From a virus: a stretch of 45,764 nucleotides of DNA. The stretch lies in IMG/VR virus record IMGVR_UViG_3300006052_000013; one strand, written 5' to 3'. The notes below the pieces were generated by a model. The model saw only the letters and a program-made list of their open reading frames with translations, was not told where the DNA came from and searched no databases. Positions 1,284-30,362 of the stretch are shown piece after piece. Position numbers and translations under genes: made by a program. Position 1 is the stretch's first letter; each line of letters starts with the position of its first letter.

Positions 1284-1922
1284 TTAAAGTGACTCCCCCA
1301 AGATTTCCGCCAACCGCGGCGGTTGGTAATTAGGACCCTTGCCGCCGACTCCCACCTTCTGGCCATACTTCATTCCCGGAACATTCGATATGGTAGGAAC
1401 GGCCTTGGTCATGTTCGAGCGATGAATCTCGCGGAACACCGCGTCGAATGGGATCGACCAGGCGATCGCCCCGGTTACCAGGGCATTAAACATCGTTCGA
1501 AGACAGATTTCTACTCGATCCAAAGATTCTGGGTCCTCCGGATTGGTACTCATGATCGCCTCATGCACGACACATGAAAGAGTCCCGAGTTGTGCAGACA
1601 AAATATGTATGAGATGGCCCGCGGGAAACATCTCAAAAACATTTGCCGTTCCCCGGTTCATTCCGTAGGCGATCAGCGTTCCCATGATAACATACCCCAG
1701 GTCCCCCATCGCATCCGCGATTTCAAGGCGGTCATCGGCGAGGGTCGCCGCGGCCAACTCTCCCAATTCTTCGGTAATCAACCGAAGACGTAACAGTACC
1801 ACCGTGATGGGAATCGGCCCGCGGTCAGATCGCCGAAATTGATTGTACTTATCCTGAAATTCTTTCAAAAGGTCTTCATAGGATTGATGCATGTCTTTCT
1901 CCTTTTTTGGATTTCCTCCCAC
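1284..1922 (-). CDS. MazG-like nucleoside triphosphate pyrophosphohydrolase
   Basis: ITEELGELAAA and LEIADAMGDLGYVI are MazG-type helices. Confidence 0.55.
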   Translation of the reverse strand: MGGNPKKEKDMHQSYEDLLKEFQDKYNQFRRSDRGPIPITVVLLRLRLITEELGELAAATLADDRLEIADAMGDLGYVIMGTLIAYGMNRGTANVFEMFPAGHLIHILSAQLGTLSCVVHEAIMSTNPEDPESLDRVEICLRTMFNALVTGAIAWSIPFDAVFREIHRSNMTKAVPTISNVPGMKYGQKVGVGGKGPNYQPPRLAEILGESL

Positions 1923-2882: not shown

Positions 2883-3272
2883 TTATAAGGCAGCCGCCGC
2901 CGGTCGCCTTATTGGTATTGGTACGTTTCTTTTCCTTCCTCTTGTAGAGGTGCCATAATGAGGCGTTGTTTCGCCCAACTCTTTGAGAGATGCAGATGTT
3001 TTTAATTTGATACGATCGTCGTCATGGGTCCATCCAGTAAATCTGGAAAGCATCGTTCTAACGTCGTTCATACACACAGCATTCATGTTGCCCCAAAGAA
3101 TTCGAAAGCGAAGTTGACCATCTACAATCGTTTTATCAAAAATTTGACGATTATCCCGTTGCAATTCTTCAATTTCATCCCACCATTTCATCGCCAGTTC
3201 TTCATTGACATCTAATTCGCAATGTACAACAATCGCTAGTTTATCTTTTCCTCTCACTTTGCCTCCTTCCAA
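2883..3272 (-). CDS. hypothetical protein (129 aa)
   Basis: ORF. Confidence 0.45.
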   Translation of the reverse strand: MEGGKVRGKDKLAIVVHCELDVNEELAMKWWDEIEELQRDNRQIFDKTIVDGQLRFRILWGNMNAVCMNDVRTMLSRFTGWTHDDDRIKLKTSASLKELGETTPHYGTSTRGRKRNVPIPIRRPAAAAL

Positions 3273-5146
3273 TTCGCCCCGGTCTTTGCTTCCCAGAGAA
3301 TTGGAATTCTGAAATTGAAGTCCTGGGTGTTCAGCAACTCGTCCATATTTTTCAGATTCACTGGATCAGGGTCCTGATCACCATCAAACTCATCGTGAAC
3401 TACGAAACGCTCCGTATAATTTAACACCTTTCGCTCGCGGTGAACGATAAAAATTTTCTTTTTCATTACGTCGGCCGCGGTACCCTGGAGGATACGGTTG
3501 AGTGCCGAGTGCGGCTTATAGGCAATCTCCTCCATCAATCTGATCTTGGGGTCCTGACTGGATGGCTTCGTGAATTTCGCCCGCCGTCCCATAAAGGTCT
3601 TTACCCATCCTCGGTTCTCCGCCAGTTTTGTGGCCTGCCGAAGTAGCCTTCCCGCCTCGGGAAACTCGCTTTCGTAAGCATCGACGAACTTATCCGAGAT
3701 GCTTTGCAAAATGCCCAGTTGCAGGGCGATCTTCACCCGTCCGGCCCCGTACACCTTGGAAAAATTGATGGTCTTGGCCGGTTGCCGGTCGAAGTCCGGA
3801 ATCACGAGACGAATCAGGTCCCGAACCATATCATGAAAATCGACCCGCGGATTATCCCCGTATGCCTTATTTAGCTTTGGGGAATTGGCGTAGTGGGCAA
3901 ATAAGCGAAATTCAATCTGTGCCGCGTCGGCGCAGAGCCAAACTTTTCCGGGGGAGGGAATAAATAGTTCCCGGATTAACCAGTCGGGTCCCACGTCTCG
4001 AATCTGATCCTTAGTCCGCATGATCTGTTGGATATTGGCGCCGGGGATACCCTCGCCCGGACTGGCGGAAGAAAAGCGGCCACTGACCGTGCCCTTGTCA
4101 TCATTATTCGCCCGGAGTTGGTGCAGACTATACCGAAGAATATTTTTGTCATCCAGGGCCTTGAGATACTTCTTCAAATACTTAGACAATAATGAGGCGA
4201 TACGACGTGCCTTGACCGCAATTTGAATCTCGGGATTCGGAAGTTTGGCCAGATAGTCTCCCTCAAAACTATCCTGGCCCTTGTCGGTCCGGGGCGGGTC
4301 TATTCCCAAATAACGAAACATTCTTGACATGTCGGTGGAAGCATCGGGATTGACCCGGAATCCGACCCGTCGGTACAGTTCCATAATCAATTTATGGTAG
4401 GCGGCCTCGGCCTCCCGGACCCAACGCTCCAACTTAGGCCGGTCGATGAGCGCGCCGTTCCGTTCCATTGTGACCACGGCAAAAATGATGGAATCTTCCA
4501 AGTCAAGTACTTTATCCAGGTCATCTGACTTGATTGAATTTTTCAGTTTGCTTTCGATTCCATACCGCATTGCCATATCGAGTTGATAGACCCGTTGGGC
4601 ATCTATCTCGGCGTATGGCCCGACCATCGCGGCCGGCATATCGGCAATTTGGGACTTGTCATTTTTCCCGAGTTCCTGATCCTTTCCCACGATGCCCAGG
4701 ACGTCATTACACAAAATCTCTAAATTGAACTTGCGCCGGTATTCATCCAATAATGCCGCCTGGTAAGATACGTCATGGCACCGGTTACCGAGGGCCTCCA
4801 GATCAATACCCCAGTTATGAGTGACGTGGGTATCATACTTGGCATTTAACCAGGATATATCCTTGTCTCGGATTTCGCGTTCAAACCAGCGTTTTACCAG
4901 GCGTTCATCGAGGTTCCCTCCCCCGGCGTGACCAAAGGGAAGATACCATTTGTTTCCATCCTCCGTGTAAAAACTGTAACCCACGGGGCGGGCCGTGAAG
5001 GGATTCTTACTGGTGGCCTCGGAATCGGCCCACAACCACTTATACTTGCTCAGGTCGGGGAGAGACGGGGCGGTCCATTTCACGCCGTCCGATCTTTCCG
5101 CAAACCGAGCAAACATGTTTCCCGGCCTTACCGTGGGTAACTTCAT
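3254..5146 (-). CDS. DNA polymerase, family A (Pol I-like)
   Basis: Motif B RQPAKTINFSKVYGAG and motif C VHDEFDGD. The start was chosen at the ATGA overlap with the deaminase stop. Confidence 0.85.
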   Translation of the reverse strand: MKLPTVRPGNMFARFAERSDGVKWTAPSLPDLSKYKWLWADSEATSKNPFTARPVGYSFYTEDGNKWYLPFGHAGGGNLDERLVKRWFEREIRDKDISWLNAKYDTHVTHNWGIDLEALGNRCHDVSYQAALLDEYRRKFNLEILCNDVLGIVGKDQELGKNDKSQIADMPAAMVGPYAEIDAQRVYQLDMAMRYGIESKLKNSIKSDDLDKVLDLEDSIIFAVVTMERNGALIDRPKLERWVREAEAAYHKLIMELYRRVGFRVNPDASTDMSRMFRYLGIDPPRTDKGQDSFEGDYLAKLPNPEIQIAVKARRIASLLSKYLKKYLKALDDKNILRYSLHQLRANNDDKGTVSGRFSSASPGEGIPGANIQQIMRTKDQIRDVGPDWLIRELFIPSPGKVWLCADAAQIEFRLFAHYANSPKLNKAYGDNPRVDFHDMVRDLIRLVIPDFDRQPAKTINFSKVYGAGRVKIALQLGILQSISDKFVDAYESEFPEAGRLLRQATKLAENRGWVKTFMGRRAKFTKPSSQDPKIRLMEEIAYKPHSALNRILQGTAADVMKKKIFIVHRERKVLNYTERFVVHDEFDGDQDPDPVNLKNMDELLNTQDFNFRIPILWEAKTGANWKEAK

Positions 5147-5727
5147 AGAATCGAGTCTTTGCAAGGATACAAATAAAAACAAGCACTATCAATTACTTCC
5201 GTGGCATCTTTTAATGGATCGTGAAAAGCATTGGTAAGAATTCCACCGTTCTCTCTAACCCACAGGGTGTTTCCAATTCTCAATTGCCGGACGTTGTCCG
5301 GAGTCATTGAATGCTTTGGAAAAGATAAAAGAACCAAACCCCGGCGATCTCCGGGGTAATCTTCCAAAGCCACGATTCTTTTAATCGGCGTGTTGACTAT
5401 AGACTTTGCACAATTGAAACATGGAAAATTTGTGCAGTACATCGTCCAGGCTAAGTCTAGGCGATGACACGTAAGAATCGCATTTTGTTCTGCGTGCGTT
5501 GCCCAACAGGCCGTGTTTTCATTGCCAGAATCTCCGGGGGTTCGTTCCCCGGTGCAGGGGCTTCCTTCTGTTCCACAATGCGGTACACCCGAGCCAATTC
5601 CATTATATCCAGAAGATAGGATGGCCCCTCGAAGATCGGTGATAATGGCCCCGGTCTTTCGCCGGACACACGTGGCCCGTTCGGCCACCAATCGAAGGTG
5701 CCGAGTCCAGTATTGATCTATGTTCAT
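5143..5727 (-). CDS. dCMP (deoxycytidylate) deaminase
   Basis: HAEQNAI...CTNFPCFNCAK zinc-binding deaminase motif; ATGA overlap with the upstream gene. Confidence 0.8.
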   Translation of the reverse strand: MNIDQYWTRHLRLVAERATCVRRKTGAIITDLRGAILSSGYNGIGSGVPHCGTEGSPCTGERTPGDSGNENTACWATHAEQNAILTCHRLDLAWTMYCTNFPCFNCAKSIVNTPIKRIVALEDYPGDRRGLVLLSFPKHSMTPDNVRQLRIGNTLWVRENGGILTNAFHDPLKDATEVIDSACFYLYPCKDSIL

Positions 5728-6557
5728 TTTCTCTCCTTCAAGATTGCAAGACACTTGTCGCTGCTTCCGGAGTGCAAGGCATCGGCGTATGCTTGCCAGG
5801 ATTTTGGCAAATTGGCAATATTGTGTAAAGTAAATTGGGCGTAGTCACGATATCCCAGATCGGGTAACCGCGGACTAATGACCATTTCCCCGGCCGGCGC
5901 CAACGCACAAGCGGCCGCCTCTTCCCAGTTATTTTGGTACAGGTGGGAAGAACCGAGATTCAAAACCAGGCTTCCGGGTTCTATTTTTAACTGCCCCGCC
6001 AGGCCATTAATAATCTGGCAAAAATTGAACACGTCGTGGGGAATTCCCAACCAGGCGTCGCTGGAACGCATATTAAAAATTCCATGTAGGTATTTGTCCC
6101 GAATCAAAAACTGACATGAAATTGTGCATGGAATATCTTTGGATCGACTTGGCATCGGGGTCCATATCGTTGCCACGGCCTGACGTGAGGATTCGTCGTG
6201 TTCTAATTGATGCAGAACGTAGTCCCATTGTTTGTGCAAGCGTGGCCCGTAGGCCCCGGCGAACACCCGGCCGTCATCCGAGTACTTGCAAATTTGCGAA
6301 TTGTACAGGGCCACGGTACCCACGTCTTCCCGGCCCGCGACGATCCATAGCCATTCTGCCAACATAAAGCGGTAGTTCAATTTTCTCATTGGAATATTCA
6401 TCACATTCCGGCGCACGTCGGAGATACCCAGACGAACTCCGATGAGTTCCTTGGTCATCATTTTGACTCGGCCAATCTCTACCATTTTGCCGCGGGTCAA
6501 AATCTCGTGTAACAGTAGGGGGTACAATTGATCGATGCTCGGCGCATTTATTTCCAT
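5724..6557 (-). CDS. ThyA-family pyrimidine hydroxymethylase or thymidylate synthase-like enzyme (possibly a dCMP hydroxymethylase)
   Basis: IPCTISCQF...MRSSDAWLGIPHDVFNF...SSHLY aligns to the ThyA core (PCH, RSxD, LGLPFN). Asp replaces the substrate-specifying Asn. Confidence 0.7.
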   Translation of the reverse strand: MEINAPSIDQLYPLLLHEILTRGKMVEIGRVKMMTKELIGVRLGISDVRRNVMNIPMRKLNYRFMLAEWLWIVAGREDVGTVALYNSQICKYSDDGRVFAGAYGPRLHKQWDYVLHQLEHDESSRQAVATIWTPMPSRSKDIPCTISCQFLIRDKYLHGIFNMRSSDAWLGIPHDVFNFCQIINGLAGQLKIEPGSLVLNLGSSHLYQNNWEEAAACALAPAGEMVISPRLPDLGYRDYAQFTLHNIANLPKSWQAYADALHSGSSDKCLAILKERK

Positions 6558-7462
6558 TTGAATTCCCTCACCTCTCTAAGTTTGTTGACAAATTCTGACC
6601 GGCGCTTTTGATGAAACCGGAAGAAACAGGCCGGGCGCATCAAGGATACAAAAGGTATGTCGGCCTTCCGGCAGGCCTCCTGGGCACTTTCTCCGAAGGC
6701 CAGGGCCACGGTCACTCCTCTCAGACGATCTGAGACCTGCCGAATATCCCGCGCATTTCCCTTGCGCGAAAATGTGTTGGTAAACATCAACTCATCTTCG
6801 TGATAGCCCGCCTCCCACAGGGCCTCGTTCAAGAATCGCGACGAATTTTTGGAATTGAAGAAAGGAAAATCTGTCTCGGTCCCATTGGTTCGTTCACCAA
6901 TTATCAGAAATCGGGCCGAGGGACATCCGATGGCCCAGGCCGGAAACGTTTCTTTGTTCATATCTCCCGACTTGAAATAATTCAGATACCAATTTTCAAT
7001 AGATATCTGAGTGTAGTCGAAGGTATGGTGGTAGGCCGATAGTCCCATAAACCGATGGTAACAATCTTTGAACTTACTCGCACTGCGCAGATAATCGTCC
7101 CCGGCCTCAAATTTCTTTTTCCAGTTCTGATAACATATCTCCCACGGCGGAGCGGCGATCACACACCTCACCGCCTGCGACCGGAATACCCGCCGGAACA
7201 TACGCATGCCGTAATAACCAACCCGATCATTATTCCGGGCGATGGGACCATAGATCATTTCCCCCAGATGAAACCGGTCAAAGACCACCGGCGATCGGCT
7301 ATGCATGGCCTTCCATAACTTTGCGGCGTAGTACTCGATCATGTCACCCTCGGCCGGCGGTGGTCCCTCATGAAAATATCTGAATCCCTTTTTAACAAGA
7401 TAGTTACACAAAGTCGTTTTTCCGGCGCCGTCCGGACCCTCAATAATCAATACTGGTGGCAT
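6548..7462 (-). CDS. P-loop deoxynucleotide kinase with a C-terminal UDG-like (family 4-like) domain
   Basis: Walker A EGPDGAGKTT; C-terminal IIGERTNGTETDFPF...FLNEAL resembles the GExPGxxE..PF..G..L motif. Confidence 0.5.
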   Translation of the reverse strand: MPPVLIIEGPDGAGKTTLCNYLVKKGFRYFHEGPPPAEGDMIEYYAAKLWKAMHSRSPVVFDRFHLGEMIYGPIARNNDRVGYYGMRMFRRVFRSQAVRCVIAAPPWEICYQNWKKKFEAGDDYLRSASKFKDCYHRFMGLSAYHHTFDYTQISIENWYLNYFKSGDMNKETFPAWAIGCPSARFLIIGERTNGTETDFPFFNSKNSSRFLNEALWEAGYHEDELMFTNTFSRKGNARDIRQVSDRLRGVTVALAFGESAQEACRKADIPFVSLMRPACFFRFHQKRRSEFVNKLREVREFKWK

Positions 7463-7711
7463 TTACTTATCCTCCTGTGTATGACATATACAAGGACAGT
7501 CTAATTTTGTACACATTTTATGTATGTGCGGGGGATTTTCTTTTTTACAACGAAAACTAAGTTTACCTTGGTAACCACCTTTTCCGCGTGGATTCGCAAC
7601 GCTGGGCAGTTTTGGACCCTGCTCACCCGGGGCATTCCCCTGGTACTTACCCCTTTTCGATGATCGCATATGCGCCAACATAGCAAAGTCTGTTTTAATT
7701 TCTTTGGTCAT
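7463..7711 (-). CDS. small Cys-rich protein (82 aa)
   Basis: CTKLDCPCICH; ATGA coupling with the helicase. Confidence 0.4.
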   Translation of the reverse strand: MTKEIKTDFAMLAHMRSSKRGKYQGNAPGEQGPKLPSVANPRGKGGYQGKLSFRCKKENPPHIHKMCTKLDCPCICHTQEDK

Positions 7712-9216
7712 AGTTCGTATACCAATTGATCATTTGGCATCAAAGTCAATAATTCTTCTTTGGCCCGCGTTATACCCACGTACCAAACACGATGCTCGGA
7801 ATCCTCGTCTCGTACCAAGGATTCAAAACTTTTCCGTAACATGCAAACATCCAGAATAACCCGGTCTGCCTGACCTCCCTTTGACTGATGTATTGACATA
7901 AGCCGGGTGCGGGGATGTAAGAGGGCATCCCAACCATGCGCCGCCACGATTCCCAGGGTATAGTTAATCCCATCGGCCTTCAATACTTTTGCCAATAACC
8001 GGGGCCATTCTTTTCCCTCGGGCATCTTCTGTAATACGGCATCCGGCCGGATCAATTTTTCTTTCAAATTTTTTGCCTCGGGTTTCAGGTTATCTACTCC
8101 GACCAGGGCCGATACGGCGCGGGCCTCGGCCGGAGACCACAAGGCATTCGTAGTTGTTTTATGCCATGCCGTCAATACATTACGCACCTCCGGGCGCGCC
8201 AAGATAGAATGAGGCCCATCAAAAGGTATACCGGCGGCTTCCATTTCCTGGGCTAACAACATGCCGCGATAATGATTGCGAAAGAGCACAAAAGTGGAAG
8301 TGTCAATAAATTCCTTTTTCTCAATCGTATCTATGGCGTGAATTTCTCTTACCTGGCCTTCTTCGTCACGGGGCCGTAACGGCTTTTTGACCCGTGCCCG
8401 TACTTTCTGGATCACCTGTTGCGCCTGGGTAAAAACGCGGCGTGGCAGACGATAAGTAATGTCTAAAAATTGTTGTTCATCATATCTCTCTTTGATGAAT
8501 CTTTCGGGCGAGGCGCCGGCCCACTGAAAGATGGCCTGGTCATCGTCCCCGGCGAGGTACCATCGGGCGGCCTCGGAACCAAGTCGGTGAATCACATCCC
8601 ACTGCAATACTGATAAATCCTGGGCCTCGTCGACGAACATCACGTCGATGGGCAGGGGTTTTCCCACGGCCAGAAAGGTGGTGAGAATATCGGTATAGTC
8701 ATACATGGCCTCGGAATCTTTCCACCTTCGGTAAGAATCGGTAAACCACTTGGCAAAGTAGTGGTCGATATTGATATTGACATCTTGCAGAGATTCTTTT
8801 AGGCCGATACGGCGGTGCCGGCCCCGATGGTTCAACTGCAATAACATGTCGGCCTGGGTTGCCATCGGTTGGTACTCGGGTATCTCCCATTCTTCCGCGG
8901 CCCAGGGGTCGATAGGTAAATGATTGATCTTGATACCGATGGATCGGCCAAATTCTTTTACATCACGGGTCTGGACCATTTGCCCCTGGGCAAAACTCAT
9001 TTGTCGGTAACAAATGGAATGGATAGTTCGCAGGTATGGCAACTCTTCCTGGATCTTACCGCTCCGGCCGAGGGCCTCAAATTTTGCCGACCGAGTGAAG
9101 GTCAAAAAGGCGATCCGGTCCGCGGGAGTATGAACTAACTCCTTTTCAAATAATTCCAACAGAGTACGTGTTTTACCCGTGCCGGGGGGACCGTAAAGTT
9201 TAAGTACCTGAGACAT
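7708..9216 (-). CDS. SF1 DNA helicase (UvrD/PcrA-like)
   Basis: YGPPGTGKT, VDEAQDLS and SIHQSKGGQADRV motifs. Confidence 0.75.
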   Translation of the reverse strand: MSQVLKLYGPPGTGKTRTLLELFEKELVHTPADRIAFLTFTRSAKFEALGRSGKIQEELPYLRTIHSICYRQMSFAQGQMVQTRDVKEFGRSIGIKINHLPIDPWAAEEWEIPEYQPMATQADMLLQLNHRGRHRRIGLKESLQDVNINIDHYFAKWFTDSYRRWKDSEAMYDYTDILTTFLAVGKPLPIDVMFVDEAQDLSVLQWDVIHRLGSEAARWYLAGDDDQAIFQWAGASPERFIKERYDEQQFLDITYRLPRRVFTQAQQVIQKVRARVKKPLRPRDEEGQVREIHAIDTIEKKEFIDTSTFVLFRNHYRGMLLAQEMEAAGIPFDGPHSILARPEVRNVLTAWHKTTTNALWSPAEARAVSALVGVDNLKPEAKNLKEKLIRPDAVLQKMPEGKEWPRLLAKVLKADGINYTLGIVAAHGWDALLHPRTRLMSIHQSKGGQADRVILDVCMLRKSFESLVRDEDSEHRVWYVGITRAKEELLTLMPNDQLVYEL

Positions 9217-10108: not shown

Positions 10109-11638
10109 TCACATTTCCTCGCGTATGGCGTTGAACTCGGGGGCGGTATAATCTTCTGTTTGGATATCCAATTTGTCAATGGGATACATCCATACTTTTA
10201 CCGTCCGACCTTTGATCTTCGTTTCTTTGAACTGGGCACCTTGCTTGTAAAGCATGGTATAAAGCACGTTACTATCAATAAACTGTCGACGATGATGTTT
10301 AAGAAAGTTTTGCAGGTCCACGGCCTTAAAGCAAATATACTTCTCCAGCTCTACCGGCGTGCCCATGAGTATGGCCTCCTCACCACGTTGAGAATTCTTG
10401 AACCGAGTCAAGAAATCCATAACACTGTTCATGATGGAACCCTCTTCACTGGCGTCATCCGGGGCCGCGATCACCTCTTGTTTAAGATGCAACTCATGCC
10501 GCATGGCCCGCCAACGATCAGATTTCATGGGTGGAATACAGATATTCATGATGTCTTCGACGCGTTGCATAAGACGGTCGAAATTGTAAAATTCCTCATT
10601 AGTCAGGGTCATCTCCCCGCCGTTAATCTCCACCATAAATTGGGGAGGATCGGTATCAATTTTTCTGAGGTGAGATATCAAGAAATCTCCCAGACTTCCA
10701 CTTTCTTTCCATGGCATGTGGGTATAACCGAATGGCAACGTATGACAAACCGGACGGTCACAATGTGATAAGATCGGTTCTTGTTCACAACGATATTGGT
10801 ACTTGGTGCCTCCGACGGACTTCAATAACCGGACCATTTCTTCTCGCGGGAGGGGCGGTTGACAAAACTTTTCATTGAATTCTAAAAACTTCTCTTCCCA
10901 AACTTTGGGGTGGGCCTTGCGCAAGAAAACTCCAAAATTGAACATACCATCGTTGCGCTTTCCCTCGGGCAACCCATGTTCCGCAAGATACTGAAGACAT
11001 GGCGGCATCACCGGACCCGAGGCCGGCGTGATCTTCGGGGCCTGTCCAATGATTACCAGTTCTTGTTCAGAAACTACCTGGTCATTTCCGTCCCAGTACA
11101 CCACCGAGTTCAAAAACTCTTCCAGTGTCATGGCCCCCTCGGGACCAATGGCATACCGATTGGTGTTGTCTCCATTAAAGTACGGTAAATTGATCCAGTT
11201 GCCCTGCCCGCTCTTATTAACCTGAATCTGTTTGGGAAAAACCTCCGACTTGGGATAACCCAGGATACCGGCCCAACGTTTTAATACGGGGATAATTTTA
11301 GATGGCTTGAAACCTTGCTCAGAAAAAAGATATAGATGTGCCCCGCCGGACTTCGACCGGCAAACCGTCAACGGCATCTTATGTTGAATAACTTTGGTTA
11401 AGAGTTGTCCGTGGTTTATCGTATCCACGTCTATATCAATGGCCGCGAATCGACAGGTACCATCTTTCAAAATCGGTACCAATCCTAAACCTCGCACCCC
11501 GGCGAGGTGTGCCCGGTAATCCTCCGGGGTGGCGGGACCGTCGGCCGTGTGATGATCGACGTTCCCGCCTTCCCGAATGGTTTGGACCCCGTGGGAGTAT
11601 TCGCTGCCCGCAAATAATTCTGCAAACAGTTTTGCCAC
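10109..11638 (-). CDS. bifunctional primase-polymerase (PrimPol)
   Basis: AAIDIDVD (DxD) and SGGAHLYLF (sGxGxHxyF); C-terminal Cys/His cluster; GTG start with GAGAGG RBS. Confidence 0.7.
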   Translation of the reverse strand: MAKLFAELFAGSEYSHGVQTIREGGNVDHHTADGPATPEDYRAHLAGVRGLGLVPILKDGTCRFAAIDIDVDTINHGQLLTKVIQHKMPLTVCRSKSGGAHLYLFSEQGFKPSKIIPVLKRWAGILGYPKSEVFPKQIQVNKSGQGNWINLPYFNGDNTNRYAIGPEGAMTLEEFLNSVVYWDGNDQVVSEQELVIIGQAPKITPASGPVMPPCLQYLAEHGLPEGKRNDGMFNFGVFLRKAHPKVWEEKFLEFNEKFCQPPLPREEMVRLLKSVGGTKYQYRCEQEPILSHCDRPVCHTLPFGYTHMPWKESGSLGDFLISHLRKIDTDPPQFMVEINGGEMTLTNEEFYNFDRLMQRVEDIMNICIPPMKSDRWRAMRHELHLKQEVIAAPDDASEEGSIMNSVMDFLTRFKNSQRGEEAILMGTPVELEKYICFKAVDLQNFLKHHRRQFIDSNVLYTMLYKQGAQFKETKIKGRTVKVWMYPIDKLDIQTEDYTAPEFNAIREEM

Positions 11639-11650
11639 GCGATCCTCTCG

Positions 11651-12472
11651 TTAGAAGCCGGCACCCGTCTCATCCGGTGCCTCTTCGGTTTCCATACCGG
11701 TCATATCGGCCGTGATGTTGACATCCTTTAGTGAGTCGTAGGCCGTCTTCAGTTGCCGGAAAAGATCGGGCGGCACAAATCCCCGCGGCTTGATCGTCGG
11801 TGCGAACCAGCTCTGTTGTCCCTTGGTAACCTCGGTGGAAATCAATTCATAAACCCGGGCAAACATGGGGGTATTCGGGTTTAACTTTACCAGGGAATTC
11901 CATTGTTTCGACACTTTCAGACCGGTAGATTTGAGCGAGATGATGATCGGAATATCGGCCACCTCGCAAAAGAAGATACCCCCGGAGGCCGGACGGTCAA
12001 TTGGTTTTACGATCGCCGCGGGCCGATTGTGCAATTTGTCACAGGTGGGCCGGTGGTTATCCGAGAATTTGGCATGTTCACAGACCGTCGTTCCGTCCAA
12101 CTCTTCGCATTTGGGAGAAAGGAACCCCCCATCTTTTCCATTGAATGATTGGCACTCGATCCCACCCCCCTCGCTCATGGGATGAAACTTGATGCGCTGC
12201 TTGGAAAAAAGAATAGGAACCACCAAGACAGACTCTCCGTAGATTTCTCCGGTGATCGTGTTAAAGAACTGCCCATCGGTGAGGTTGGGGATGTGGTTGG
12301 CATCCGATTTCTTCTTTTGTGGGGTAAGAGACTGGCACAAACCAAGCCGCGGATAGGTAACATCCTGGCGCTCAATTTGCTCGGTCCCCTCACGACCCGT
12401 GATGTAATCTGGAACGGCCAATTTTCCGGTTACCTGTTCCAGGGCCTTATCTTCTTGTGTTGCTTTCGCCAT
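11651..12472 (-). CDS. putative ssDNA-binding protein (gp2.5-like?)
   Basis: Acidic C-terminal tail ending in Phe (EEAPDETGAGF), as in T7 gp2.5. The fold is not recognisable by eye. Confidence 0.3.
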   Translation of the reverse strand: MAKATQEDKALEQVTGKLAVPDYITGREGTEQIERQDVTYPRLGLCQSLTPQKKKSDANHIPNLTDGQFFNTITGEIYGESVLVVPILFSKQRIKFHPMSEGGGIECQSFNGKDGGFLSPKCEELDGTTVCEHAKFSDNHRPTCDKLHNRPAAIVKPIDRPASGGIFFCEVADIPIIISLKSTGLKVSKQWNSLVKLNPNTPMFARVYELISTEVTKGQQSWFAPTIKPRGFVPPDLFRQLKTAYDSLKDVNITADMTGMETEEAPDETGAGF

Positions 12473-12475
12473 TGT

Positions 12476-12979
12476 TTACTCTCCTTGACTCTCTTTTGCT
12501 TTTCTGCGCTTCAACTTTGTTTTCAGGAAGGCCGCGGCGCCCGGCGGAACTTCCTGACCGGTTTCGAGTCGTTCTTTAACGATCGAGGCCGCGGTCTGGT
12601 AATTTACGGTAAAAACGTCGTTAAGTCCATTTGTTTTCAGCCAGTTATAGAAACTTTCTCGGTCTTGTACCGATACATATACGGCCTGTTCCTGGTAAAA
12701 GGTCCGGCCGTCCGGCAGGGTAAACTTAGTGATACCCTCATCATCGAGAATGTCCACTACCATCTGGGTAATGGCCTCTTGCATAACCGCATTTACCGCC
12801 AGATCATCGTTGAGTTTATCCTCCTCTTTTCTGAGTTCGTCAAAGCGCAGGGCCAACTTTACCTTGTCGGCCAGGCCCTCGTCCCGCAGGTCTGATTTCG
12901 CCCGATCTACCTTTTCCTGATAGGTAGGTTCGTTGCTGTACCGTACCATGTTTTTCTTGTCTATTTTTGATTTTGCCAC
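12476..12979 (-). CDS. hypothetical acidic protein (167 aa)
   Basis: ORF; GTG start. Confidence 0.45.
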   Translation of the reverse strand: MAKSKIDKKNMVRYSNEPTYQEKVDRAKSDLRDEGLADKVKLALRFDELRKEEDKLNDDLAVNAVMQEAITQMVVDILDDEGITKFTLPDGRTFYQEQAVYVSVQDRESFYNWLKTNGLNDVFTVNYQTAASIVKERLETGQEVPPGAAAFLKTKLKRRKAKESQGE

Positions 12980-13212: not shown

Positions 13213-13920
13213 TCACCTCCCCAACTTCAAATTGTCGATCTGCCGGGACTCGGGTACGATATCGTCATACAAGAGTGGAATCCTTTGTTGAAATTCTTTC
13301 AATAACGGAATCGTGATCTGCCGCATTTGCGGATGGGCCTCTTTGGAAGTACGCATCAAAAAGAAATGCCGCCAACTGCGCAAATTTGCCGTGGTCACGA
13401 TACGCGAGGCCAGGGCATTGGGAAACACGCTCCGGGCCTCCTGCGGACGCCAACCTTTTTTGAGTAACGCGCAATACATATTTTCACAGTTTTGAATTAT
13501 CCATAACCAGTCCCGATTGTATTGACAGAGAGGAAAACCCGGACGATGGTGTATTCCGGATACGGTGGGTTCATCTCCCGTCCGGCAATATTCGCAATCA
13601 ACTCCCGGTATGGGGTAGATAAAGGCCGGCGGCATCTTCTTCTCATAATTGACAAACCTGGTACTCTCCTGGGTATAGGAGGCGAGTCGATGCCGTACCC
13701 ATTCGTGGGTTATACCCCGGTCCATCACGGCATCCACCGAGGCGGTGACGTGTTCTACCACTGACCAATCGCCATGGTCCATGACCACCGTTTTAATAAA
13801 CCGTTCGGTGTTAGGCGAAGCATCCTCCGATCGATGACTGATCCGGGCACACCACTCGATGTGCCGGAGTGGCTCCGGGGTCAGTACCATGATTTTAGCG
13901 TAGGGTTGAATTATTTTCAT
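13213..13920 (-). CDS. thyX: flavin-dependent thymidylate synthase ThyX
   Basis: ThyX signature RHRLASYTQESTRF (RHRxxSxxxxSxRF). Confidence 0.8.
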   Translation of the reverse strand: MKIIQPYAKIMVLTPEPLRHIEWCARISHRSEDASPNTERFIKTVVMDHGDWSVVEHVTASVDAVMDRGITHEWVRHRLASYTQESTRFVNYEKKMPPAFIYPIPGVDCEYCRTGDEPTVSGIHHRPGFPLCQYNRDWLWIIQNCENMYCALLKKGWRPQEARSVFPNALASRIVTTANLRSWRHFFLMRTSKEAHPQMRQITIPLLKEFQQRIPLLYDDIVPESRQIDNLKLGR

Positions 13921-28998: not shown

Positions 28999-29031
28999 CC
29001 TTACCACGGGTATTACCCCGCGGCCCTCGGT
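28999..29031 (-). repeat. short cassette (inside the C-terminus of the sigma-like gene)
   Basis: cttaccacgggtattaccccgcggccctcgg. Confidence 0.5.
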
Positions 29032-30362
29032 TGTTCTTCGGTGACCGGCGCCATCCAGTGCAGTTTTCCATCCGATTCCAGGATTAATTCTTTATCTTGG
29101 CATCGACGGATGATCGAATAGGCCTGACCATTTGTGGTACCCGCGGTCATCATCTTCTGAACTAATTCGTTCTTAGGAAGAGGCCCATCGGCGAGTATCT
29201 GTTTTAAGACCGGTTCCCAATATCCTCGTGGTGAACGAGTCTGCGGGGCATTTCCATTGACCTCATCATGGGCCGTCGCATTAATCGACTTCTTTCCCGT
29301 GATAATATCGTGGGCACTTGTCAGTTGTTCAATCACCGCGGTCCACTTACGGGCCTCGGCCTCGGATTCCGCGGCCTGCCGGGTATAAAACTGTACCTTG
29401 CGATGGGCATCAGATATCAAAGACTCGATGGTCGGTGGTGATCCACTTGGTATTTGTTCCATTGTTTTCTCTCCTTGTTGTTTTAGTTGAAAGAGATAGT
29501 TTTGATGAACAATCTCTTCCTGGGTATACTGCCGAACCGGCCCCGGTGCTGTGACCGTCCGGGGGGGACGGAGATTCACGGGGGTTTTTGCCAGAAGTCC
29601 GTGCGACGTAAATATTTGATTCGGGGCACGAGGGTCGCGTCCGCTCAGATGGTAATAACTACCCAGTTCCGTTTCATTGAATCTGGACGCCCCCGCATTC
29701 CGTGAACTTCGTATTTGCGTCGGTGGTGGACTCCCGATGTGTTCCCGGGCGGCCGCGGCGACCAGTTTTTCGCGCCGCAACCTTCGTTTTTTCTTGCTCA
29801 TTGATTTGCTCATTGATTTGCTCTCCCACAACACTCGAAGATCACTCAAACCGTGTGATTGATAGGCCTTTACGGCCCCGACGGACAAATTTAAAATTCC
29901 GGCGGTTTCTTCCAAAGTTTTTTCTTCCAGAAATCTAAGAAACAACACGCGGCGCCGGCTCCTATTCAAATACGGTAACAAGCGCAAAAAATGCTCACGT
30001 GTGATCCAGGAATCTATGGTTTTATCCGGAGTATCCGGCAAATCCAGGGTGTTTCCATCTTCATTGATGGGATTATCCAAGGATACTTCTGAAAGATTGT
30101 TCTTTCTTCGTAGGTACATCAAAAATTCCCGGTGCGCAATTTGATGCAACCAGGAACTTAATTTGGCCTCACCTCGAAAATCGCCGATGGCCAGAAAGGC
30201 CTTCGTAAAGGTCACCTGGGCCAGTTCTTCCACGGCGTCTTCATTCAGTTGCCAATATTTGCGCAAAGTTTTTTTTACCCGCGATAACTGGTCACGATAT
30301 ATTTGGGAGAACGCGTCTTGATCGCCGGATTTTGCACGATCTAATAATTCTTTTTCTTCCAC
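29013..30362 (-). CDS. ECF-type sigma-70 family factor-like protein with a roughly 270-aa C-terminal extension
   Basis: Region 2: DAFSQIYRDQ...FLAIGDFRGEAKLSSWLHQIAHREFLMYLRR. Region 4: LRFLEEKTLEETAGILNLSVGAVKAYQSHGLSDLR. GTG start with an AAGGAGAA RBS. Confidence 0.6.
   Translation of the reverse strand: MEEKELLDRAKSGDQDAFSQIYRDQLSRVKKTLRKYWQLNEDAVEELAQVTFTKAFLAIGDFRGEAKLSSWLHQIAHREFLMYLRRKNNLSEVSLDNPINEDGNTLDLPDTPDKTIDSWITREHFLRLLPYLNRSRRRVLFLRFLEEKTLEETAGILNLSVGAVKAYQSHGLSDLRVLWESKSMSKSMSKKKRRLRREKLVAAAAREHIGSPPPTQIRSSRNAGASRFNETELGSYYHLSGRDPRAPNQIFTSHGLLAKTPVNLRPPRTVTAPGPVRQYTQEEIVHQNYLFQLKQQGEKTMEQIPSGSPPTIESLISDAHRKVQFYTRQAAESEAEARKWTAVIEQLTSAHDIITGKKSINATAHDEVNGNAPQTRSPRGYWEPVLKQILADGPLPKNELVQKMMTAGTTNGQAYSIIRRCQDKELILESDGKLHWMAPVTEEQPRAAG

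Follow-up and report, generated by a model that had tools for sequence, protein, structure and literature searches.

In cytosine-replacing phages that do not belong to the T4 group, the thymidylate synthase (TS) homologs and deaminases of the pathway have been characterised, and the kinase step has been borrowed from T4 gp1, a deoxynucleoside monophosphate (dNMP) kinase. This holds for the NEB MetaGPA work, in which a module of deaminase, TS(N177D), PRA-PH and PolA genes was strongly enriched in viral contigs with modified cytosine; since T4 gp1 was used there for the kinase step, a native kinase was not described. The specificity of such TS homologs can be read from a few positions of E. coli ThyA: N177 is the determinant of cytosine versus uracil (PMC8670742, PMC13326640), L143D/E goes with a hydroxymethyl product and D169N with a 5-hydroxy product (PMC13326640). 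In thymine-modifying phages, uracil-DNA glycosylase (UDG) domains are found fused to the family-A DNA polymerase PolA (phiLo 9qhs, YerA41, SPO1/SP-10-like phages); UDG activity has been shown for the phiLo and YerA41 fusions (bioRxiv 10.1101/2025.03.26.645540), and the active domains excise deoxyuridine (dU) that stems from residual dUTP. N4-like PolA proteins carry UDG domains without catalytic residues. Here we analyzed a 45,764-nucleotide stretch of viral DNA (IMG/VR virus record IMGVR_UViG_3300006052_000013; hereafter the window) with a gene in which the partner of the UDG-like domain is a nucleotide kinase instead of a polymerase, and the predicted modified base is cytosine instead of thymine.

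A first-pass annotation, made from the sequence without database searches, had read positions 6548-7462 as one gene fusing a nucleotide kinase to a UDG-like domain, leaving the strand unstated. An open reading frame (ORF) for 304 amino acids fills exactly this interval on the minus strand, and the plus-strand reading frame is full of stops. Our analysis suggests, with about an even chance that the scheme is right as a whole, that the two-domain enzyme it encodes belongs to a phage pathway in which 5-hydroxymethylcytosine (5hmC) takes the place of cytosine: the adjacent TS homolog would make 5-hydroxymethyl-deoxycytidine monophosphate (5hm-dCMP), the kinase half would phosphorylate it, and the UDG half would remove a uracil-type base. 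Both domains are of known kinds; what is apparently undescribed is the fusion itself, together with its link to hm-dCMP synthases and the UDG domain in it.

The kinase-UDG family and its cytosine-specific TS partner

A search of 5.8 billion proteins identified about 55 full-length homologs of the fusion (29-78% identity) and about 17 stand-alone kinases. Searched alone against 1.84 billion proteins, the C-terminal domain retrieved 232 cluster representatives; the best 150 of these 232 matches were nearly all proteins of 285-330 amino acids, with the match at about residues 170-300. Across 81 loci, each taken with 8 kb on either side, the hidden Markov model (HMM) of the C-terminal domain matched only inside kinase ORFs, and no separate ORF with this UDG domain was found. 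An AF2 model of the window protein (pLDDT 95.5, pTM 0.92) points by its confidence to a fixed arrangement of the two domains, and BFVD contains full-length matches with the same domain arrangement (TM 0.75-0.80), all of them unnamed. As judged from sequence, the kinase-UDG fusion is a coherent and widespread family. It is also apparently undescribed: our literature search found no publication on the fusion, on its link to hm-dCMP synthases or on its UDG domain, with a mention in the Iyer/Aravind 2013 survey being possible. The first-pass annotation, which knew of no description of this domain combination, agrees with this search, but public records already contain the fusion, labelled simply 'thymidylate kinase' (Bacillus phage G gp315, AXL3 gp29 and DSL-LC01 WJZ48531).

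In 69 of the 81 loci, the next gene downstream of the kinase or kinase-UDG gene encodes a TS homolog, often with deaminase and PolA genes after it. All 69 linked TS homologs have Asp where E. coli ThyA has N177 (N177D), and 67 of them have L143D with D169 retained. The same column holds Asn in M6 gp58, a known dUMP hydroxymethylase included as a control, which validates the N177 read-out. The TS homolog of the window has the complete set (KDIPC, L143D; RSSDAW, D169 kept; PHD, N177D). It falls far below every NCBIfam TS cut-off, and its best solved relative is the CMP hydroxymethylase MilA (5b6d; E 3.5e-25, versus about 1e-13 for true TS). Its ORF overlaps that of the kinase-UDG gene by 10 nucleotides, and the two genes are translationally coupled. 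Because this coupled neighbour is an Asp-type TS homolog closest to MilA, cytosine is taken as the modified base, and the modified pyrimidine of the window is predicted to be 5hmC rather than uracil or thymine. The modified pyrimidine that the first-pass annotation had assumed is therefore supported by the context and can be refined to a predicted cytosine derivative. Two other products were considered for the neighbour, and both a 5-hydroxy-dCMP synthase (D169N) and a dCMP methyltransferase (hydrophobic L143) are ruled out by D169 together with L143D.

Cultured relatives support this prediction. Stenotrophomonas phage AXL3 shares the module, encoding an NTP-PPase, the 327-amino-acid 'thymidylate kinase' gp29, an Asp-type TS, a deaminase and ThyX, and its DNA resists all 35 tested restriction enzymes with G/C in their sites (PMC7504290). 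The authors found the presence of two thymidylate synthases in AXL3 puzzling (PMC7504290); a ThyA homolog acting as dCMP hydroxymethylase, with ThyX left to supply dTMP, would explain the pair. The window has the same two 'thymidylate synthases', an Asp-type ThyA homolog and ThyX (Table 1). In Bacillus phage G, gp315 passes the Pfam cut-offs for both domains (UDG, 48 bits; Thymidylate_kin, 28.9 bits) and has an alpha-glucosyltransferase, a deaminase and an Asp-type TS as neighbours. The Actinomycetia phage DSL-LC01 has the same gene order.

The kinase half as a candidate 5hm-dCMP kinase

The N-terminal P-loop kinase proposed by the first-pass annotation is confirmed by GPDGAGKTT at residues 9-17, by a match of the N-terminal half to PHROG 761 ('thymidylate kinase') at E 7e-13, and by a match of the family profile to SPbeta YorR (2axp/3kb2) at E 6.8e-10. 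The similarity to YorR-like kinases extends over their full length in both sequence and structure. Within the P-loop, E8, G9, D11, G12, G14 and K15 are invariant in 56/56 aligned homologs and in all 80 fetched loci, and EGPDGAGKT and FDRF are invariant family-wide. We take FDRFHLGEMIYGPIAR, with its invariant D62, R63, Y71 and R76, to correspond to the acceptor-nucleotide site of thymidylate kinases (TMPK), 'DR[YHF]..S..AYQ...RG'; the P-loop Asp (EG.DG.GK[ST]) and DR[YHF] are hallmarks of TMPK. Two differences from the known members of this group stand out: YorR is without known function and without a C-terminal domain, and the protein studied here is linked to a cytosine-specific, not a uracil-specific, enzyme.

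Three assignments of the kinase half were tried. As to a canonical dTMP kinase, the protein scores 25.7 bits against PF02223 (cut-off 27), with only the P-loop covered, and 24 bits against the dTMP kinase equivalog TIGR00041 (cut-off 83.25); the link to a uracil-specific TS expected of a dTMP kinase is absent, all 69 linked TS homologs being Asp-type. This identity is ruled out by scores far under the curated cut-offs and by the cytosine-specific partners. As to the T4 gp1-type dNMP kinases (1dek/1del), our protein occupies the same predicted position in the pathway, phosphorylating 5hm-dCMP from a phage TS homolog, but has no sequence or fold similarity to gp1. As to the 5-hydroxymethyl-deoxyuridine (5-hmdU) DNA kinases (PF18748, HMUDK_HMUD1), neither the protein nor any of the 56 homologs matches the family at E<=0.01. 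M6 gp54 matches PF18748 at E 7.7e-18, has Asn where the kinase-UDG family has the P-loop Asp, and aligns with our family in hhalign over only 23 P-loop columns. Membership in this family is ruled out by the missing PF18748 match and by the restriction of the gp54 alignment to the P-loop.

In some loci a stand-alone kinase of 150-196 amino acids takes the place of the fusion beside an hm-type TS homolog. Among the scanned ORFs of the window, a set that leaves out many short ORFs beyond 30 kb, no second kinase, other UDG, AP endonuclease or DNA ligase was found. The kinase half most likely phosphorylates free 5hm-dCMP, because the pathway needs this step, the P-loop Asp and DR..Y..R are those of mononucleotide kinases, stand-alone versions fill the same slot, and no other kinase is present among the ORFs scanned. 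The first-pass annotation had suggested that phosphorylation and base recognition could be coupled. As one joint reaction this is not supported, since the stand-alone kinases imply that the free nucleotide is the most likely substrate and that the kinase does not depend on the UDG half.

Similar kinases have been reported in a related setting. RB69p045, DLP3_078 and RL38J1_214 (PMC13326640) are putative nucleotide kinases of YorR/TMPK fold that likewise lie beside a MilA-like, cytosine-specific TS homolog; they differ from the fusion in being single-domain proteins with D169N (5-hydroxy type) TS neighbours. A tblastn comparison with the 'thymidylate kinase' genes of other T4-like phages gave only weak matches (E 0.2-0.9). 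Another parallel is SP10 gp186, which also joins a P-loop kinase to a domain of DNA-glycosylase fold in a phage that makes a 5-hydroxymethylpyrimidine, but its kinase is of another family, its glycosylase-like domain has a helix-hairpin-helix instead of the UDG alpha/beta fold, and its pathway is that of uracil and not cytosine.

In the pathway that we propose, the downstream coupled TS homolog would convert dCMP into 5hm-dCMP, as its residues and context indicate. The YorR/TMPK-like kinase half would then convert free 5hm-dCMP into 5hm-dCDP, acting as a functional analogue of T4 gp1 with a different fold, and host NDP kinase would turn this into the triphosphate that the phage PolA uses. Depletion of dCTP and supply of dTMP via dUMP would be the work of the MazG-like pyrophosphatase, the dCMP deaminase and ThyX. 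The kinase-UDG family is the obvious candidate for a native 5hm-dCMP kinase, and its presence could mark hmC-type genomes in metagenomes.

A compact UDG-fold domain and its possible roles

The first-pass annotation had pointed to a motif resembling motif A of family-4/5 UDGs, and this motif is present as IIGERTNGTETDFPFFNSKNSSRFLNEAL at residues 187-215. A profile search of the C-terminal half had been set beforehand as the test that could overturn the UDG assignment, and it found UDG-fold similarity. PF03167 matches residues 179-295 at E 4.7e-5 (23.9 bits, 0.4 bit under the gathering cut-off of 24.3). The same profile is matched at E<=0.01 by 36 of the 56 full-length homologs, with a best E of 1.4e-9, and by phage G gp315 with 48.2 bits. 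The family profile matches the T. thermophilus family-4 UDG 1ui0 at E 4.7e-6, and the HMM alignment of the two is collinear in every motif (G...A.L.VGE, PF, LN..L..AG, TN, LG..A, HP). It should be noted that the family profile is needed for this result, as a search of the PDB with the single query sequence returned just P-loop and spurious annexin matches. The alpha/beta fold of the UDG superfamily, with the four-stranded parallel sheet common to families 1-6, is present in the C-terminal domain. The UDG resemblance of the C-terminal half is thus not due to chance.

We also compared the catalytic residues with those of family-4 UDGs, a check that the first-pass annotation had called for. Three of the positions are kept in the window copy: E190 of motif A (Glu in 47/56 homologs, Asp in 7/56), the stacking F201 (Phe in 54/56) and the base-recognising N229 (Asn in 54/56). 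The fourth is changed, with Arg276 in place of the motif-B His. Pro follows at position 277 in all 56 homologs and in the window copy. Asn229 is the equivalent of N82 of S. tokodaii UDG, the uracil-recognising Asn of family-4 enzymes, and Brig1, a glycosylase that removes a cytosine derivative, has Glu at that position (PMC11078745). The full Glu/Asp-Phe-Asn-His set is kept in most members, namely in 53 of the 56 sequences of alignment A1 and in 32 fusions linked to an hm-type TS. A separate, large clade has LPPP at motif B, with Pro where the His would be, and Cys-Asp at motif A (ORFs of about 311-331 amino acids; loci L026, L027, L029, L031, L034, L037, L040-L045, L048-L050, L055, L060, L062, L064-L068 and L071-L076); it retains Phe for stacking, Asn for recognition and the LG motif and is still linked to hm-type TS homologs.

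Compared with the family-4, UdgX and family-5 UDGs (1ui0; T. maritima TM0511, 1l9g; M. smegmatis UdgX, 6ail; Tth UDGb, 2d3y), which span 190-220 residues, the kinase-fused domain has about 125. It lacks the Fe-S cysteines, its TN-to-LG segment is shortened, it occurs almost only behind a kinase, and in the window copy it has Arg for the motif-B His. The alignment to 1ui0 shows that the domain lacks both the N-terminal ~30 residues seen in family 4 and the insert that bears the cysteines, and the 56-homolog alignment has no conserved Cys in the C-terminal domain. The absence of a conserved cysteine implies that there is no Fe-S cluster, and the lack of the four Cys ligands of a [4Fe-4S] cluster rules out strict membership in family 4 or UdgX. 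Among the Fe-S-free relatives of family-4 UDGs in this analysis, the attached mini-UDG is the smallest, and it is found essentially only in this fusion.

Relative to P0002, a homolog with 78% identity that has His at position 276, the C-terminal half of the window protein is 83% identical and the kinase half 77%; the family means are 39.7% and 42.4%, respectively. Going by these identities, the UDG half is not decaying and is under normal purifying selection despite R276. The Arg276 codon, CGC at positions 6635-6637, is one transition away from CAC, and the substitution may weaken or alter catalysis in the window copy.

Our preferred reading is that the UDG half probably removes uracil-type bases, as the PolA-fused phage UDGs do. 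The 125-residue domain would bind DNA and flip out a uracil-type base through Phe201 and Asn229, and in most members, which have the motif-A Glu/Asp and the motif-B His, it would excise the flipped base and so remove dU leaked from the dUMP/dUTP flux. Recognition of a uracil-type base is suggested by the Asn, which is the ligand in uracil-specific enzymes and is replaced by Glu in Brig1. Some dUTP is to be expected, given that a large dUMP pool, running from the deaminase to ThyX, would pass a promiscuous-looking kinase. Removal of dU would be the most economical role of the UDG half; it is also the weakest and least certain step of the scheme, because the His is lost in the window copy and in a whole clade and no repair partners were found.

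Several observations weigh against the proposed scheme. The Pro of motif A is Thr in the window protein (GERTNG). At motif B, where 53/56 homologs have His, the window copy is the only one with Arg, and the His is replaced by Pro in 25 related loci and by Ser in two; with the residue lost to Arg, Pro or Ser, selection for glycosylase activity cannot apply to the whole family. In an all-hmC genome, spontaneous deamination yields 5-hydroxymethyluracil (hmU), not uracil. No AP endonuclease or DNA ligase that could complete repair is present among the scanned window ORFs, only an RNA-ligase-like gene. On the side of the kinase, RB69 has a gp1-type dNMP kinase in addition to a YorR/TMPK-like kinase beside its cytosine-modifying TS homolog, so that YorR/TMPK-like kinases may serve a role other than dNMP phosphorylation. 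Finally, the hydroxymethyl-versus-methyl call on the TS homolog hangs on a correlative residue, L143, from a single paper.

The repeated loss of the motif-B His favours a possible, though somewhat unlikely, alternative in which the kinase acts as proposed above and the UDG-fold half is a non-catalytic module that binds DNA or the replisome. Such a module could anchor the hm-dCMP kinase at replicating phage DNA or within a complex that synthesises dNTPs, or it could read a flipped base, comparable to the inactive UDG domain of N4-like PolA or the processivity role of poxvirus D4. It would account for a fold that is kept while the His is repeatedly lost (Arg in the window, Pro in the 25-locus clade, Ser in two loci) and for a UDG half conserved like the kinase half despite R276. 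The fixed inter-domain arrangement indicated by the AF2 pTM and the BFVD matches is likewise consistent with it, and the N4-like PolA domains without catalytic residues provide a precedent. Binding alone, however, leaves the complete Glu/Asp-Phe-Asn-His set of most members unexplained, and the stand-alone kinase lineages do without any tether. Nor is the loss of His proof of inactivity, as family-2 UDGs function without it. The first-pass annotation had offered a catalytically dead fold as its own alternative; the change of His to Arg in the window copy agrees with it, but inactivity is not established, E190, F201 and N229 being kept in a domain that is as conserved as the kinase.

The deamination chemistry of an hmC genome raises a second alternative, which we judge distinctly unlikely: the UDG half could be an active glycosylase with another target, either hmU or thymine opposite G, the deamination products of hmC and 5mC, or unmodified cytosine, for quality control of the phage genome or destruction of host DNA. 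The relevant lesion in an hmC genome would indeed be hmU and not U, Brig1 illustrates that the UDG fold can evolve towards cytosine derivatives, the link of the fusion to cytosine-modifying TS homologs is strict, and motifs A and B diverge from canonical family 4 (GERTNG, HPQYWKRF). Asn229, in contrast, is a ligand of the uracil/thymine type for the Watson-Crick face; cytosine-directed enzymes have Glu (Brig1) or, when engineered, Asp at the recognition position. This residue speaks against a cytosine target, not against hmU or thymine.

Highly improbable, finally, is a kinase acting on DNA, in which the UDG fold would flip 5hmC (or 5hmU) out of the duplex and the rigidly attached P-loop domain would phosphorylate its hydroxymethyl group as a first step towards further cytosine hypermodification, a convergent counterpart of 5-HMUDK/aGPT-PPlase for thymidine: SP10 gp186, which fuses a 5-hmdU DNA kinase to a transferase of helix-hairpin-helix glycosylase fold, the tie of the fusion to hydroxymethyl-type TS homologs, the rigid two-domain packing predicted by AF2, and the YorR/TMPK-like kinases that RB69 and DLP3 have on top of a gp1-type dNMP kinase would fit it, but the results with PF18748 and M6 gp54 given above (including the Asn of gp54 in place of the invariant P-loop Asp, which with DR..Y..R is typical of mononucleotide kinases) and the stand-alone kinases that fill the slot without a base-flipping domain argue against it, none of the scanned window ORFs was seen to encode a downstream transferase like aGPT-PPlase or AADT, and nothing would remain to phosphorylate hm-dCMP in the pathway.

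If the UDG half is active as in our preferred reading, pyrimidine-replacing phages would repeatedly have added uracil removal to their replication or precursor machinery, to PolA in thymine modifiers and to the kinase in cytosine modifiers, and biotechnology would gain a small glycosylase scaffold. An inactive domain would instead be a clean natural case in which a glycosylase fold has become a binding module. In both cases the kinase-UDG proteins are probably mislabelled as 'thymidylate kinase' in the databases.

Neighbouring genes and other features of the window

The kinase-UDG gene and its neighbours are given in Table 1. The gene is part of a densely packed operon on the minus strand, in the order UvrD-like helicase, Cys-rich ORF, kinase-UDG gene, TS homolog, deaminase and PolA.

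Table 1. The kinase-UDG gene, its domains and motifs, and other genes of the window. Residue numbers refer to the kinase-UDG protein.
Feature	Positions	Strand	Remarks
Kinase-UDG-like ORF, stop included	6548..7462	minus	304 aa, ATG start (ORF list)
YorR/thymidylate-kinase-like P-loop kinase domain	6968..7462	minus	N-terminal, residues 1-165
P-loop EGPDGAGKT	7415..7441	minus	residues 8-16; TMPK-type Asp11
DR...Y...R motif FDRFHLGEMIYGPIAR	7235..7282	minus	residues 61-76; D62, R63, Y71, R76 invariant
Minimal UDG-superfamily domain	6563..6937	minus	C-terminal, residues 176-300; four-stranded core, no Fe-S ligands
Motif A region LIIGERTNGTETDFPFF	6857..6907	minus	residues 186-202; G189-E190, stacking F201; aligns with GEGPG...PF of 1ui0
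FTN	6776..6784	minus	residues 227-229, Asn229; aligns with ITN of 1ui0
Motif B region MRPACFFRF	6614..6640	minus	residues 275-283; Arg276 in place of superfamily His
TS homolog, predicted dCMP hydroxymethylase	5724..6557	minus	downstream; 10-nt overlap with kinase-UDG ORF
dCMP-deaminase-family gene	5143..5754	minus	203 aa; PF00383 E 7.5e-15; PHROG 174 E 1e-34; same operon
Family-A DNA polymerase (PolA), 3'-5' exo and pol	3254..5182	minus	PF00476 E 1e-46; PF01612
MazG/PRA-PH-type NTP pyrophosphohydrolase, candidate dCTPase/dUTPase	1284..1922	minus	PF01503 E 2.9e-10; PHROG 671; further downstream
Cys-rich ORF (…CKKENPPHIHKMCTKLDCPCICH…)	7463-7711	minus	82 aa; gapless between UvrD-like helicase and kinase-UDG gene
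UvrD-like helicase	7708-9216	minus	same tightly packed operon
AEP-type primase	10109-11638	minus	matches TOTE conflict-system AEP domain
Pam3 gp34 homolog	11651-12472	minus	
Pam3 gp33 homolog	12476-12979	minus	
ThyX, flavin-dependent thymidylate synthase	13213..13920	minus	PF02511 E 1.4e-39; further upstream
Major Vault Protein shoulder domain ORF	18149-20704	minus	851 aa; PF11978 E 1.5e-26; vault repeat PF17795 weakly
T4 Rnl1-type RNA ligase domain	22670-23818	minus	PF09511
C5 cytosine DNA methyltransferase	23815-24987	minus	
Sigma-70 region protein	29013-30362	minus	449 aa; regions 2 and 4

The PolA of the window is without a UDG domain of its own in the Pfam scan. The Cys-rich ORF has no match in Pfam or PHROG and could encode a small zinc-binding protein. 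The deaminase, besides its PF00383 match, matches MafB19-deam and the NCBIfam 'anti-phage dCTP deaminase' with residues 85-136; its substrate is uncertain, because related phage deaminases were recently shown to use 5m-dCTP, not dCMP.

A C5 cytosine DNA methyltransferase is encoded in a genome that is predicted to swap cytosine for hmC. In many related loci a homolog of this methyltransferase lies directly upstream of the kinase-UDG gene (L003, L005, L006, L009, L011, L016 and L028; at about 6.7-6.9 kb), suggesting that it belongs to the same modification module. In the window, the gene with the T4 Rnl1-type RNA ligase domain is immediately downstream of the methyltransferase gene and overlaps it.

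A megablast search with 7 kb of the window found no match among 50,697 phage records. Up to about 32 kb, coding is nearly all on the minus strand and the GC and AT skews are steadily negative; beyond this point the window holds short ORFs on both strands, almost none of them annotated. The 851-amino-acid ORF has no PHROG match, and the eukaryotic-type Major Vault Protein shoulder domain that it contains is unusual in a phage. The 449-amino-acid protein has sigma-70 regions 2 and 4 within its first 176 residues, followed by a long C-terminal part, and is a phage-encoded sigma factor. The AEP-type primase gene is followed by homologs of gp34 and gp33 of the cyanophage Pam3, a possible sign of relatedness to freshwater or cyanobacterial phages.

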